From assembly GCA_050012155.1 (NCBI GenBank), contig JBEKHS010000005.1, positions 21,117-85,116 of the forward strand: DNA of 64,000 bases, in the 5' to 3' direction. This stretch comes from Candidatus Sulfotelmatobacter sp. GTDB taxonomy: Bacteria > Acidobacteriota > Terriglobia > Terriglobales > Acidobacteriaceae. Shown in pieces: positions 2,144-5,397 of this stretch. A program made the position numbers and the translations under genes. The notes under the pieces are model-generated. The model saw only the letters and a program-made list of their open reading frames with translations. It was not told where the DNA came from and did not search any database. How positions within the stretch are numbered: the first letter of the stretch is position 1; each line of letters opens with the position of its first letter.

Positions 2144-2917
2144 ATGCCCAAAAGCCCTGCCAATCGTCCTCCGCCTGTCCGCGCTTCCGTTGTGCATGAC
2201 GGCGATGGAAAAGAAATAGGCAACCTTATTCTCCGCAGTCTTCCCTCAAGCGAAGGTACGCAAGTTTTATCCTCCGCGGAATTTGTGCGCCTCAACCTTC
2301 ATCAGGTGCTCCATGAGGCTGGAGAGACGATCAAGTCGGTGTATTTCCTGAACGAAGGCTTGGGCTCGGTGCTGACGGTTCAGCCCGACGGCAAGAGCGT
2401 GGAAGTAGGTTTGATCGGCAAGGAGGGGTTTGTCGGCCTGCCCATTATCTTTGGATTTTCAACCAGCGGACTTCGAGTGGTCACGCAGGCGGATGGAACT
2501 GCATACCGAATCGAAGCGCAGACTCTGCGAAAATTCCTACCCGAGTGTCCGGAACTGGAACGGCAGCTTCAGCGCTTCTCATTGTTCCTGGGGATGCAAT
2601 CGACGCAGCTCGCGGCCTGCAATCGCCTTCATAAGGTGGAGGAGCGATTGGCACGCTGGCTGTTGATGAGCCAGGACCGGATTGGCGGCAAAACGCTCCC
2701 CTTAACCCAGGAGTTTCTGGGGCAAATGCTCGGAACGCGGCGGGCAAGCGTCAGCGCCGCTGCAGGAGCGTTGCAGAAAGCCGACATGATCACGTACACA
2801 CGAGGCAACGTGACGATCGTCGATCGACGAAAGCTTGAGCAGACCGCCTGCGATTGCTATTCCATCATCCAACTGCAGAAAAAAAAGTGGAACGCGGAAA
2901 TCGATAGCTCGGGCTGA
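2144..2917 (+). CDS. Crp/Fnr-family transcriptional regulator
   Basis: cNMP-binding-like N-terminal domain (VYFLNEGLGSVLTVQPDGKSVEVGLIGKEGFVG). C-terminal HTH (RLARWLL...LTQEFLGQMLGTRRASVSAAAGALQKADMITY). Confidence 0.85.
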   Translation: MPKSPANRPPPVRASVVHDGDGKEIGNLILRSLPSSEGTQVLSSAEFVRLNLHQVLHEAGETIKSVYFLNEGLGSVLTVQPDGKSVEVGLIGKEGFVGLPIIFGFSTSGLRVVTQADGTAYRIEAQTLRKFLPECPELERQLQRFSLFLGMQSTQLAACNRLHKVEERLARWLLMSQDRIGGKTLPLTQEFLGQMLGTRRASVSAAAGALQKADMITYTRGNVTIVDRRKLEQTACDCYSIIQLQKKKWNAEIDSSG

Positions 2918-2928
2918 TCCGAACAGCA

Positions 2929-4233
2929 TCAACTGTTGGCGACTCCCCGGTAGCGGCCGACCAGCCCGGCGCGCCGTGCGGGCAATTGTTTTTCGGCGTT
3001 GTCGCTGATCGAACGGACGTTGCTGTTCTGCTCCGACCGGAAGCGCAACAAGGCTGCAATATTCCCGACTTTGTCGAACTCGGCGTCATCCTTCACGTAG
3101 AACAGTTCGATGTCGTGACGGATTACTCCGGGCAGGATGGCTTCCGCCACATCCACCACAGCGCGAGTCTGCCTGCCGCAAACCGGACAGAAGCTCACCA
3201 GATGGGCGTCAAGATGGCCGCAGCCGGAGCACTCGACTGCCTGCGCCGCATAGTTGAAACCGAGCAGAAGAGTTTGCACCTGGCCTAACTGCAACGCGTG
3301 GAGGACGCGCCGCAATCCGGTGACGCCGCGGCCATTGCCGCGGGCCTGCTCGAGTGCCTCGCGGACCAATTCCGCGCGGCGCTTATCCTGCGAAGCCGCG
3401 AAAATGCGCTCCGCCTCTGAACGGATTACTTTCCTGGGCACATGAGCCAGGTCGGCGCAAAAGCGCCCGAGCAACTTCTGCGAGACATAAGGATGCAGTT
3501 GCGGTTCGAACTGCGGCCACAGAGTCTCCTGGCAGCCCAGGATCCAGTTCTCGAATATCCCTTTGTCTTTATCGTTACCCAGCGCGTCTTTAAGGAACTC
3601 GGCGACAAACTTGAAATGCTGGCGGGCTTCGTCGGCCACGCGGCGCTGGGCATGGCCTCCGTCGTAGCCCGCGAAACCGTCGCTACGGCCACGGCGGGAG
3701 AGCGGATGGAAAAATCCTTCGCGCTCGGTCAGTTCGCCCAAACGCAGTTCGAACAGGCGCGCGCGATGGCGATCGACGAGCACGATGCCGAGGCTGGGGA
3801 ATGCTCCCAGCAGGTGCGCCAGAGGCTTCAGACGAAAATGACGATCAACCCGAAGCTCCGTGCCCTTCAGTTGGTCGGGCAGATCGTACTCCCGCCAGAA
3901 AGCTCGAGCCGAGCAGGCGAATACCGCTTTGGCTCGCGCGCCATTGCCTCGCGCGCCATTGCCTCGCCAATCCTGCGACAGACGCACGATGCGGTCAAGA
4001 TCGGCACGTGCCGATTCGCATTTGTCTTTTTTGGAGTTACTGCGTTCTTTAGGGTGACTGCTGCTTCTGCTTTCCAACTGGCGCAAAGCTTCGCGCGCCA
4101 AATCTTTGGCGAGGATTGCGTCTTCCTTGTGGGCTTTGTTGCGGGGCGCTGCGGGCTGAAAATAAAAACTAAGCGCACAGGCTTGTGGATCTTCAAATTG
4201 GGCCAATTCACGGACTTGTTCACGAGTAATCAT
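2929..4233 (-). CDS. Bacterial archaeo-eukaryotic release factor-like protein (baeRF / eRF1-Pelota-like) with a Zn-ribbon insert
   Basis: 434 aa. Central LGIVLVDRHRARLFELRLGELTE and a YDGGHAQRR loop. The C-terminal domain (GRGVTGLRRVLHALQLGQVQTLLL ... CSGCGHLDAHLVSFCPVCG ... IELFYV) resembles aRF1/Pelota domain 3 with a zinc ribbon. Confidence 0.7.
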   Translation of the reverse strand: MITREQVRELAQFEDPQACALSFYFQPAAPRNKAHKEDAILAKDLAREALRQLESRSSSHPKERSNSKKDKCESARADLDRIVRLSQDWRGNGARGNGARAKAVFACSARAFWREYDLPDQLKGTELRVDRHFRLKPLAHLLGAFPSLGIVLVDRHRARLFELRLGELTEREGFFHPLSRRGRSDGFAGYDGGHAQRRVADEARQHFKFVAEFLKDALGNDKDKGIFENWILGCQETLWPQFEPQLHPYVSQKLLGRFCADLAHVPRKVIRSEAERIFAASQDKRRAELVREALEQARGNGRGVTGLRRVLHALQLGQVQTLLLGFNYAAQAVECSGCGHLDAHLVSFCPVCGRQTRAVVDVAEAILPGVIRHDIELFYVKDDAEFDKVGNIAALLRFRSEQNSNVRSISDNAEKQLPARRAGLVGRYRGVANS

Positions 4234-4268: not shown

Positions 4269-5312
4269 TTACGCGGTGCCGGTGGGCGCGAAGCGTCCTT
4301 TAAATTGCATGGCCAGTCCGGGCGATTTGCGCAGGTGATTGCGGGCGGCGGAGATGGAATCGAGTACGTGCTCGGGCGAAACGCCGGTGATGGCAGCGAT
4401 CTCGCCCACGCCGAAGCCTTCAATGGCGTGGAGAATGAAGGCTTCGCGATGAGCCGGCCGAACGTCACGCAGAGCGGAAGCGATGAGGTGCATCATCTCA
4501 TCCGAACCCACGATCTCCTCAGGCGTGGCCACGCGGTCGTCGGCGATGATGGTCTCTTCTGTGATAGCTTCGTCGGGCTGATGGAATTGCAATCCGGGCT
4601 CGTCGCTGGCTTTGACATTTTGCTTGCGGGCGGATTCCTCGAGGTGCACAGCTCCACCGTCGCTGTCATCCGTGCGCGAGAGTTGATCCAGCGCGGTGAG
4701 CGCGAGGTGGTAGAGCCAGGGCTCGAGCGCGAGGCGCTCCGGTTTCTCGTGACTGTTGTCCAGCGCGGCGGCGACAGTTTCGTCGATTACTTCTTCTTTG
4801 GTGATGGACTCCGGCGCAACCAGGTCGGAAGCTTCGCGGAAAAAGATTTCGTGTTCGACAAAACGCTCCAGGCGCGCCAGATTCACGTTGACGTAGGAGC
4901 GCACGTCATCGGCTGAGACCGTTGCCGGAAACACTGCAGCTAACGTCTGCTCGAAGGGCACGGAAACATTGCGCCGCGTCGAAGCCTCATGGCGACGCCG
5001 GGTCCACTTGTGGCTGGAGCGCAGCAGGTCTTTGTGCCTGGTGAGCTGTTGCAGCAAATCTTCGAATGCTCTCTTCACCGCGGCGGCAACGGTTGCGGCT
5101 TTGGACTGCGCCGCCATCTGGCCCGAAGGCAGTCGCAGGTTGAGCGAAACGCTGGTCCCCTCGCGGGCGGAGAGTTCCTCCACCGTGCCTTTCAGATGGA
5201 TCAACTCCGGGCGAAACACCTGCAGCCGTTTTCGCAGTTTTTCAATTTGATGTTGGAGATCTTTTTCTACGGCGGGAGTTTTATGAAGACGGTAACTGAT
5301 GTGAACGTTCAT
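4269..5312 (-). CDS. HPF/RaiA (S30AE) ribosome-hibernation domain fused to an ECF sigma-like region 2/region 4 module
   Basis: Start chosen at MNVHISYRL (ATG 5312, GAGGTG upstream). The N-terminal ~100 aa fit the HPF pattern. The C-terminus carries LEPWLYHLALTALDQL (region 2-like) and REAFILHAIEGFGVGEIAAITGVSPEHVLDSISAARNHLRK (sigma-70 region 4 HTH). Only 35 nt separate it from the baeRF gene. Confidence 0.75.
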   Translation of the reverse strand: MNVHISYRLHKTPAVEKDLQHQIEKLRKRLQVFRPELIHLKGTVEELSAREGTSVSLNLRLPSGQMAAQSKAATVAAAVKRAFEDLLQQLTRHKDLLRSSHKWTRRRHEASTRRNVSVPFEQTLAAVFPATVSADDVRSYVNVNLARLERFVEHEIFFREASDLVAPESITKEEVIDETVAAALDNSHEKPERLALEPWLYHLALTALDQLSRTDDSDGGAVHLEESARKQNVKASDEPGLQFHQPDEAITEETIIADDRVATPEEIVGSDEMMHLIASALRDVRPAHREAFILHAIEGFGVGEIAAITGVSPEHVLDSISAARNHLRKSPGLAMQFKGRFAPTGTA

Positions 5313-5397
5313 GAGCACCTCGGGTATTCCAACGAAGCAACGCAACCCAGTGCTTGCTGAGAAATCACTTCCTGAGAAAATTGTACACCCGTTGCCA

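Follow-up and report, generated by a model that had tools for sequence, protein, structure and literature searches.

A chimeric HPF-sigma-like protein family paired with an aeRF1-like (Balon-type) gene, and its divergent member at the orf11 position of tLST

Introduction

Ribosome hibernation factors determine how bacteria survive starvation, heat, oxidants and antibiotics. The locus described here raises the question of what such a factor might do when it is joined, in one polypeptide, to a module resembling a sigma factor. The locus lies in a stretch of 64,000 nucleotides from Candidatus Sulfotelmatobacter sp. (Acidobacteriota; contig JBEKHS010000005.1, positions 21,117 to 85,116), called the window below, in which a minus-strand gene encodes an HPF/RaiA-type domain followed by an extracytoplasmic function (ECF) sigma-like module. 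A preliminary description, made from the letters of the DNA alone, had proposed this fusion.

The fusion is real and belongs to a large, old and mobile family, found in peat-soil Acidobacteriota at one end of its range and, at the other, on plasmids of Burkholderia, Brucella anthropi and Paracoccus yeei. In its members the HPF scaffold has gained a sigma-derived module, and an aeRF1-like (Balon-type) factor is their regular partner. As to the role of the protein, we give about even chances to the view that it is a non-canonical, chimeric factor of ribosome hibernation acting together with the Balon-type protein encoded beside it, and that its C-terminal module is a regulatory or protein-binding head and not a promoter-recognising sigma factor.

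A single uninterrupted gene encodes both modules

The fusion gene and the segments of its product occupy the following positions of the window:

4269..5312, minus strand: complete coding sequence of the HPF-sigma-like fusion, 347 aa plus stop (translation, full-length homologues, overall ratio of non-synonymous to synonymous substitution rates (dN/dS) of 0.09)
5013..5312, minus strand: HPF/RaiA domain, net charge +6 (Pfam, hhalign, AlphaFold2 (AF2), Foldseek)
4914..5012, minus strand: basic helical extension and disordered linker, aa 101-133 (SSHKWTRRRHE...; AF2, charge, family alignments)
4662..4913, minus strand: sigma region-2-like helical domain, aa 134-217 (RFVEHEI, EEVIDET, PWLYHLA; hhalign to sigma-E residues 19-87, AF2 helices, charge -11)
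4527..4661, minus strand: acidic, predicted disordered linker between the sigma2-like domain and sigma4, aa 218-262 (AF2, charge)
4569..4592, minus strand: family-defining motif LQFHQPDE, aa 241-248 (family alignment)
4323..4526, minus strand: sigma region-4-like helix-turn-helix, aa 263-330 (REAFILHAIEGFGVGEIAAITGVSPEHVLDSISAARNHLRK; Pfam Sigma70_r4_2 and PhyR_sigma-like, family profile)

The open reading frame (ORF) starts with the ATG at 5312 and ends with the stop codon at 4269-4271, and its translation contains all three peptide strings that had been quoted for it. More than 4,600 matches to the fusion protein were found in the protein database. The best 120 of these are 79-94% identical to it over the full length, have an identical Pfam architecture and come from many independent assemblies. 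Close matches, from Candidatus Sulfotelmatobacter, are named at their source either [quoted passage not shown] or "HPF/RaiA family ribosome-associated protein".

The preliminary description had suggested surveying Acidobacteriota for the fusion and its neighbours, and this group proved the right one. A scan of species genomes, run with the single sequence as query, detected the fusion in 155 of them. The 80 relatives that were kept, all from Acidobacteriota-type metagenome-assembled genomes (MAGs) and 71-85% identical to the query, are the 80 related loci referred to below. An exhaustive phmmer search against 1.84 billion cluster representatives returned only 792 matches, 376 of them at E<=1e-10. 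Among the 792 are full-length relatives 320-385 aa long, with identities as low as 24-30%. Accordingly, the family forms a coherent group that stands clearly apart both from ordinary HPFs and from ordinary ECF sigma factors. By source name, its distant members come from Blastocatellia, Bryobacteraceae, Nitrospira, Tectimicrobiota, Thiolapillus, Paraburkholderia, Burkholderia and Parvularcula, so that full-length relatives are present in Acidobacteriota, Nitrospirota, Tectimicrobiota and Alpha-, Beta- and Gammaproteobacteria. Plasmid-borne members were found in Burkholderia anthina, Paracoccus yeei, Brucella anthropi ATCC 49188, Methylorubrum extorquens AM1, Sphingomonas, Shinella and Cupriavidus.

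Within the close clade, dN/dS was 0.06 for the HPF domain, 0.08 for the sigma2-like domain, 0.10 for the acidic linker and 0.13 for sigma4, figures that are approximate because dS is saturated. Every segment of the protein is under purifying selection, the junction regions included. The concern that a frameshift or sequencing error had joined two separate genes was thus not borne out, given this selection and the thousands of full-length relatives.

The N-terminal half is an HPF/RaiA domain with a basic tail

The first 100 or so residues had been described as HPF/RaiA-like, and Pfam, profile comparison and structure prediction agree. Pfam Ribosomal_S30AE (PF02482) matched aa 9-95 with 31.9 bits against a gathering cut-off of 23.7, and it also matched 65 of the 76 relatives in the family alignment. 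When this alignment was compared with E. coli HPF by hhalign, 94 of 95 residues were covered with a probability of 95.7% and an E-value of 1e-8. The AF2 model of the whole protein was built on the same 76-member alignment and reached a mean predicted local distance difference test score (pLDDT) of 74.7 and a predicted template modelling score (pTM) of 0.50. In it, the HPF domain was predicted with a pLDDT of about 88 and consists of strands at aa 2-8, 39-48, 52-61 and 64-72 and helices at aa 13-29 and 75-108. Foldseek aligned this domain to solved structures of HPF, YfiA and RaiA with TM-scores of 0.79-0.84 (4hei, 2ywq, 6h4n, 8uu4, 8rd8_D), of which 8rd8 contains the RaiA of the Balon-RaiA ribosome.

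The domain carries the motifs LNLRLPSGQ and QQLTRHKDLL, the latter resembling RQLTKHKDKL of E. coli HPF. At the family level, the consensus sequences are LNLRLPxGQ and (R)QLxKHKxxLR, and the second is nearly identical to the E. coli stretch. The domain is followed by a basic extension with the family consensus LRxEHxWKRxxRR; aa 93-118 have a net charge of +6 (family median +5.5), the HPF core and tail together amount to +12 in the window protein, and the AF2 pLDDT falls below 50 at aa 101-127. The C-terminal dimerisation domain of long HPF was not found, as aa 100-347 give sigma-type Pfam domains only.

The C-terminal half is homologous to an ECF sigma factor and has lost hallmarks of promoter recognition

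Both a sigma region 2 and a region 4 helix-turn-helix had been read from the sequence of the C-terminal half. Region 4 was confirmed by Pfam Sigma70_r4_2, which matched aa 277-324 with 26.5 bits against a cut-off of 25.7. Region 2, on the other hand, stands at the profile level only: Pfam Sigma70_r2 gave no match to the window protein even at E<=10, and was detected in eight of the 76 relatives, while the family alignment matched E. coli sigma-E by hhalign over residues 19-185, that is regions 2 to 4, with a probability of 97.4% and an E-value of 1.3e-11. The NCBIfam model TIGR02937 for sigma70-ECF covered aa 170-329 with 38 bits, below its cut-off of 42.9. Structure prediction, which had been proposed as a check of the fusion, agrees with this division, the AF2 model having an HPF fold at the N-terminus and sigma2 and sigma4 helices at the C-terminus. 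The sigma2-like helices span aa 134-161, 172-184 and 196-217, and four helices were predicted for sigma4. Judged from these profiles, the C-terminal module is homologous to a whole ECF sigma factor, with sigma2 and sigma4 in the ECF arrangement. The family motifs of the sigma2-like domain are RFVxREI, (D/E)VVD and WLxxLA, and the sigma4 consensus is LPxxWRxAFxLxxxEGF...E(I/V)A.

The residues with which a sigma factor contacts promoter DNA have changed. The Gln of region 2.2 is replaced by Asp177 in the window protein and by Asp in 72 of the 76 members, and the position of the region 2.4 Asn is mostly occupied by hydrophobic residues in the family alignment. The sigma2-like domain has a net charge of -11, compared with +4 in region 2 of sigma-E, and the whole sigma-like part has a charge of about -22. 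The recognition helix of region 4.2 reads HVLDSISAAR in the window protein, RVLSSISAAR in the consensus of the close clade (mean 1.75 K/R) and EVERILEYAR in distant relatives (mean 2.2 D/E), compared with TVRSRIFRAR in sigma-E and SVKSL, AVKSR or TVKTR in ordinary ECF sigma factors. The basic DNA-contact motif [ST]-V-[KR]-[ST]-R is thus absent from the window protein, its close clade and its distant relatives, which have neutral or acidic residues instead. The structural core residues of sigma2 and sigma4, W199-L200, R289 and L294, are kept.

A similar combination is seen in PhyR. The Pfam model PhyR_sigma-like (PF22233) matched aa 281-324 with 30.2 bits against a cut-off of 27, and it matches 39 of the 76 relatives. 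The best PDB sequence match of the window protein was the PhyR-type regulator 9cb6 (E 2e-4), the recognition helix of which is likewise non-basic. As in the PhyR mimic, the structural core of the module has thus been retained while hallmarks of promoter recognition are gone, which accounts for both matches.

Between the two sigma-like domains lies an acidic linker with a family median net charge of -10. Its AF2 pLDDT is below 50 at aa 218-240 and 42-66 in 10-residue blocks over the whole linker. Embedded in this poorly ordered segment is a near-invariant motif with the consensus [DE][FY][YW]QPD[ED], in which P246 is invariant and Q245 and D247 are at least 90% conserved. When the motif was used as the sole search pattern, 385 metagenome stretches were retrieved, and relatives of the fusion protein were encoded in 302 of these.

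An aeRF1-like gene accompanies the fusion gene

The most informative context of the fusion gene, missed by the preliminary description, is an aeRF1-like gene downstream of it. Two further features are needed here:

2929..4233, minus strand: gene of the aeRF1 superfamily, baeRF family 10, Balon-type, with a Zn-ribbon (CSGCG...CPVCG), 35 nt downstream of the fusion gene and co-oriented with it
5380..5391, minus strand: conserved 12-nt element CGGGTGTACAAT that lies about 67 nt upstream of the ATG and resembles the consensus of a housekeeping-type -10

The product of the downstream gene matched Pfam baeRF_family10 with 68.7 bits. Of the NCBIfam models for ribosome hibernation factors, MSMEG_1130 (2.9e-10), Rv2629 (6.3e-10) and AOC03_06830 (2.7e-5) were matched far below their cut-offs, and aRF1 was matched too. 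A profile search of the PDB returned aRF1 only (3agk, E 6e-5). In Foldseek, the top ranks went to ribosome-bound Msmeg1130 and Rv2629 (Balon; E 4.5e-12) and the next to aRF1/eRF1 and Balon of P. urativorans, a ranking that is indicative only at a model pLDDT of 48. The poor quality of this model (pTM 0.34) is due to a shallow alignment, with 72-98% identity. In the GGHAQ stretch of the protein, Gln is replaced by Glu in most close homologues, and a conserved catalytic Gln of the GGQ type is therefore doubtful in this clade. The protein also contains a low-complexity GNGARGNGAR insert, the length of which varies among homologues.

The baeRF10 gene lies downstream of the fusion gene in 78 of the 80 related loci, which is 78 of 78 informative ones, as the other two loci end too early. 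This synteny of the close clade is shallow. At twelve metagenome loci with relatives only about 25% identical, a baeRF10 homologue (24-34% identical to that of the window) is encoded on the same strand within about 2 kb, and the pairing of the two genes therefore predates the divergence of these proteins.

The CGGGTGTACAAT element was found in 77 of the 80 related loci, 57-75 nt upstream of the ATG, and is probably the housekeeping (sigma-70-like) -10 region of the promoter of the operon. An ECF-type autoregulatory promoter was considered and rejected, the close clade showing the sigma-70-like conserved element only. Upstream of 39 diverse distant relatives, no shared motif was seen by eye, no formal motif search having been run. 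No anti-sigma gene adjoins the fusion gene, whose neighbours are baeRF10, an M20 peptidase gene and a Crp/Fnr regulator gene, and neither a partner ECF sigma gene nor any anti-sigma gene, NepR-like or otherwise, is conserved nearby in the window or the related loci.

In the 5' untranslated region (5'UTR; 5313-5379), the conserved pair AAGCAC...GAGGTGCTC is a candidate for blocking access to the Shine-Dalgarno sequence. An RNA thermometer or other structured 5'UTR was not supported: RNAalifold on 28 of these regions gave -3 kcal/mol without compensatory pairs or covariation, and no Rfam match was obtained.

Distant relatives lie among stress genes

In distant relatives, the fusion gene (HPFsigma in the gene orders below) keeps company with chaperone and protease genes. 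In Paraburkholderia and Burkholderia, the order is hsp20 x2 ... HPFsigma-groES-groEL-dnaK; in a Blastocatellia MAG, it is dnaK-grpE-dnaJ-MerR-DUF308-Usp-HPFsigma (a dnaK-grpE-dnaJ-hspR region); and in Thiolapillus, msrA-HPFsigma-ftsH. In Tectimicrobiota, clpB and dnaJ are near HPFsigma, and at several metagenome loci a ClpB-like gene lies immediately upstream. Counted over 33 non-redundant metagenome loci, the families most often found as neighbours were PsiE (7), ClpB, baeRF10 and thioredoxin (5 each), and DnaJ, MerR_2, Usp and BON (4 each). A recurrent operon from soil metagenomes (L143, L165, L158, L162) contains a cNMP-binding thioredoxin-reductase-like gene, HPFsigma, a Zn-ribbon thioredoxin (Trx2), PsiE and baeRF10.

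The gene at the orf11 position of tLST is a divergent member

One family member was found on plasmid pOANT01 of Brucella anthropi (L172, 2884-21915), inside an island like tLST (transmissible locus of stress tolerance), which is a clinically and industrially relevant resistance island. The order of genes there is psiE, hsp20 x3, marR, ftsH, ClpK-like AAA ATPase, HPFsigma, hdeD, ..., yfdX1, yfdX2, trxC, kefB. The plasmid is a conjugative alphaproteobacterial one, and insertion sequence elements interrupt the island.

With the B. anthropi protein as query, 288 plasmids were matched (Klebsiella 123, Enterobacter 73, Acinetobacter 25, Escherichia 17), the matching product being a "hypothetical protein" encoded directly upstream of trx-GI. 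In a canonical tLST1 the gene is located as follows:

L174:9001-10146, Enterobacter hormaechei plasmid NZ_CP147669.1: gene of 381 aa between hdeD-GI and trx-GI

In the published gene order of tLST, this position is that of orf11, the product of which was reported to share less than 30% identity with anything known (PMC8290217). The orf11-type protein is about 23-25% identical to the B. anthropi member and contains no HPF or sigma Pfam domain above threshold. When the family profile A4 was compared with WP_023304019.1 by hhalign, 340 columns were aligned with a probability of 99.94% and an E-value of 8.4e-37, a FYQxDD motif included. The window protein is connected to the orf11 family through the family alignments and through phmmer matches to A4-type members (E 1e-23 to 1e-31). 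On this profile evidence, we conclude that the gene at the orf11 position is a divergent full-length member of the HPF-sigma-like family. It was found in 152 of 5426 complete E. coli genomes (about 3%), where it is annotated as hypothetical.

Apart from the end-to-end profile homology, the order orf11-trx-(kefB)-psiE mirrors the order HPFsigma-trx-psiE-baeRF10 of the soil operon. In contrast to the gene of the window, which lies among housekeeping genes, orf11 is part of a mobile island without a Balon-type gene. The resemblance of the soil operon to the order orf11-trx-kefB-psiE hints at an origin of the "oxidative stress module" of the island.

What the fusion protein may do

As a hibernation factor, the protein would bind the tRNA/mRNA channel of the 30S subunit with its HPF/RaiA domain and basic tail, in the manner of HPF, RaiA and archaeal HibA. 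Its aeRF1-like partner, transcribed with it, would fill the A site of the same ribosome, and the two-gene unit would thereby silence and protect ribosomes under stress. The ECF-derived module appears to sit at the place of the dimerisation domain of long HPF and to be held by flexible linkers. Acidic and stripped of promoter-contact residues, it would no longer recognise promoters and may act as a protein-binding or regulatory head, which could keep the basic HPF surface covered until stress sets in, or serve as a docking site for a partner via the invariant FxQPDE linker motif. We prefer a hibernation factor to a working sigma factor because the sigma-like part is acidic and lacks the usual motif of the promoter-recognition helix.

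Several observations weigh against this preference. In the window protein, the NCBIfam yfiA equivalog TIGR00741 scores 24.6 bits, below its cut-off of 40.9. At the family level, profile comparison places the module closer to genuine ECF sigma factors than to PhyR (family profile against PDB: E about 1e-15 for ECF sigma factors, about 7e-9 for PhyR), and some relatives exceed curated sigma thresholds: TIGR02937 gave 71 bits for one (P0225) and 49 for the member from Brucella anthropi, and Sigma70_r2 and Sigma70_ECF are found in 8 and 10 of the 76. Many relatives head stress operons, as a regulator would. The arrangement of the domains relative to each other in the AF2 model is uncertain, as reflected in its pTM. 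A search of the literature found no experiment that shows ribosome binding by any family member. Finally, sigma-only members of about 219-260 aa exist that have no HPF domain and keep the FYQPDE motif (P0359-P0364, L163:7055-7753, L152:1083-1868). The first of the two genes with coordinates is directly 3' of a ClpB-like gene, and the second retains a 37-aa remnant of the C-terminal HPF helix. Such members show the sigma-like module to be functional by itself, in a way not accounted for by a purely hibernation-accessory role, and so keep the transcription-linked readings alive.

The first of these readings is that of a genuine ECF sigma factor tethered to the ribosome, with the HPF domain parking it on idle ribosomes or releasing it from them, so that translation status would set a stress regulon of chaperones, proteases, thioredoxin, PsiE and the aeRF1-like factor. 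The hhalign match to sigma-E across regions 2 to 4, the better PDB score of ECF sigma factors, the relatives above sigma thresholds, the sigma-only members and the frequent position of the gene first in or beside stress operons (Paraburkholderia, Burkholderia, Blastocatellia, Thiolapillus, soil metagenomes) would all suit it. However, region 4.2 has lost its contact motif and is partly acidic there, a strongly acidic sigma2-like domain shows the changes in regions 2.2 and 2.4 described above, and Sigma70_r2 is absent from the window protein. Moreover, there is neither an adjacent anti-sigma gene nor an ECF-type autoregulatory promoter, a conserved sigma-70-like -10 being present instead. In tLST, deletion of orf11 was not among the seven deletions that lowered the heat or chlorine resistance conferred by the island (PMC8407380), and orf11 is disrupted in LHR2 (PMC5383660). 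On balance, we consider a genuine ribosome-tethered sigma factor unlikely.

A DNA-blind sigma mimic that couples the state of the ribosome to transcription would agree with the lost DNA-contact residues and the conserved core. It could capture an anti-sigma factor as PhyR does, or be a decoy that holds the RNA polymerase (RNAP) core on hibernating ribosomes. The above-threshold PhyR_sigma-like match, the similarity to 9cb6 and the strong purifying selection on the module point in this direction. In the AF2 model, sigma2 and sigma4 are packed in a compact form as in anti-sigma complexes, and Foldseek aligned the helical C-terminal half to ECF sigma factors in that form with TM-scores of 0.60-0.67 (CnrH, SigW, EcfG-type RpoE, SigH, SigL; 5uxx, 4cxf, 5wuq). 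AlphaFold often gives the compact form for ordinary ECF sigma factors too, and this match therefore does not discriminate. On the other side, the protein has no receiver domain, no NepR-like or anti-sigma gene and no partner ECF sigma gene is conserved nearby, and the module is nearer to true ECF sigma factors than to PhyR. The mimic is thus an alternative that we hold only tentatively and think improbable.

One polypeptide could in this way couple the ribosome and RNAP in stress: the HPF domain would plug the ribosome, and the sigma module would keep its surfaces for the RNAP core or for anti-sigma factors without recognising promoters. We regard this as doubtful. Equally speculative are its two consequences, namely that such a protein would hold RNAP on hibernating ribosomes (co-hibernation) or would switch a stress regulon by the number of vacant ribosomes. 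If true, this coupling would assign a function to tLST orf11 of the heat- and chlorine-resistance islands in E. coli, Klebsiella and Enterobacter.

That the fusion is an artefact of frameshift, mis-assembly or chance resemblance of two genes can be rejected with near certainty, since its sole weak point, a region 2 unseen by Pfam, is set against an uninterrupted architecture in thousands of proteins from independent assemblies (among them complete chromosomes and plasmids of cultured strains), full-length alignments down to about 25% identity and purifying selection across the junctions.

Relation to known systems

The preliminary description knew of no characterised example of such a fusion. 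This holds for experiments; the architecture itself has already been reported. A preprint of November 2025, "The evolutionary lifecycle of ribosome hibernation factors", describes some long-HPF homologues without a dimerisation domain, which carry a fused Csp, SigE or CBS domain instead (10.1101/2025.11.04.686544). These chimeras have spread horizontally, including to the E. coli plasmid pEc78, coexist with canonical HPF and often adjoin Balon genes. The window protein is a new representative of these SigE-HPF chimeras beside Balon genes. It shares with them an HPF N-domain, a SigE-like module in place of the dimerisation domain and a Balon-adjacent site outside the canonical hpf locus, and the chimeras are likewise scattered over phyla and plasmids. 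The preprint is bioinformatic only and leaves the sigma capability of the module unaddressed, whereas the gene of the window is a chromosomal Acidobacteriota member in housekeeping surroundings. What is added here is the loss of the canonical promoter-contact features, the invariant linker motif and the recognition, at the profile level, that the gene at the tLST orf11 position belongs to the family. In the main text of the ECF re-classification paper (PMC7826278), there is no mention of S30AE, hibernation or ribosome terms and hence none of the fusion, and no mention of it was found in the main text of the baeRF paper (PMC6514570).

Compared with HPF/RaiA (YfiA), long HPF included, the window protein has the same N-domain fold and motifs and a stress context, but it lacks the dimerisation domain, carries a 220-aa acidic sigma-like extension and falls below the yfiA equivalog cut-off. 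The pairing with an aeRF1-like gene also has precedents. Balon, an aeRF1 homologue, is a hibernation factor that occupies the A site with EF-Tu and binds one ribosome together with RaiA, and raiA is the most frequent neighbour of Balon genes, which also share operons with Hsp20, DnaK/J, HdeD and "alternative sigma70 factors" (Helena-Bueno et al. 2024, PMC10901736). Conserved HPF-baeRF-1 neighbourhoods, for which a joint action on the ribosome was proposed, were described by Burroughs and Aravind (2019, PMC6514570). The locus of the window resembles these cases in joining genes of the HPF family and the aeRF1-like kind within a stress-linked operon. Here, however, the HPF partner bears a sigma-like module, and baeRF family 10 is only distantly related to Balon, Rv2629 and Msmeg1130.

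Like group IV (ECF) sigma factors such as E. coli sigma-E, the window protein combines sigma2 and sigma4 with an acidic linker and shows profile homology over the whole sigma factor. Unlike them, it adds 130 aa of HPF domain and linker as well as the FxQPDE linker motif, its sigma2 is acidic, and it has no recognition-helix motif and no anti-sigma partner. With the anti-anti-sigma factor PhyR it shares a sigma-like domain with a degenerate recognition helix and the PhyR_sigma-like hit. In contrast to PhyR, it has no receiver domain (no Response_reg hit) and no NepR or EcfG partners, its family extends beyond Alphaproteobacteria, and the partner domain is HPF. The archaeal HibA, which joins a CBS module to an HPF/RaiA domain (PMC13324472), differs in its reversed domain order, in having CBS in place of a sigma-like module and in being experimentally characterised.

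Surroundings of the locus

The locus of the window is a chromosomal two-gene unit and not an island. It is flanked by an M20 peptidase gene, a Crp/Fnr regulator gene, fpg, pyrF, thiD, an EPSP-synthase-family gene and other housekeeping genes. The Crp/Fnr-type regulator (cNMP-binding plus HTH_Crp_2; 2144-2917, plus strand) converges on the 3' end of baeRF10, with 12 nt between the two stop codons. The TrxR-like gene found upstream of distant members likewise begins with a cNMP-binding domain, which may be a coincidence or reflect a shared signalling input. Further along, an ORF on the minus strand (430-1101) encodes a BrnT ribonuclease toxin domain of a type II toxin-antitoxin system (Pfam, 74.5 bits); the listed ORF exceeds the length of the domain, and its true start therefore probably lies further downstream.

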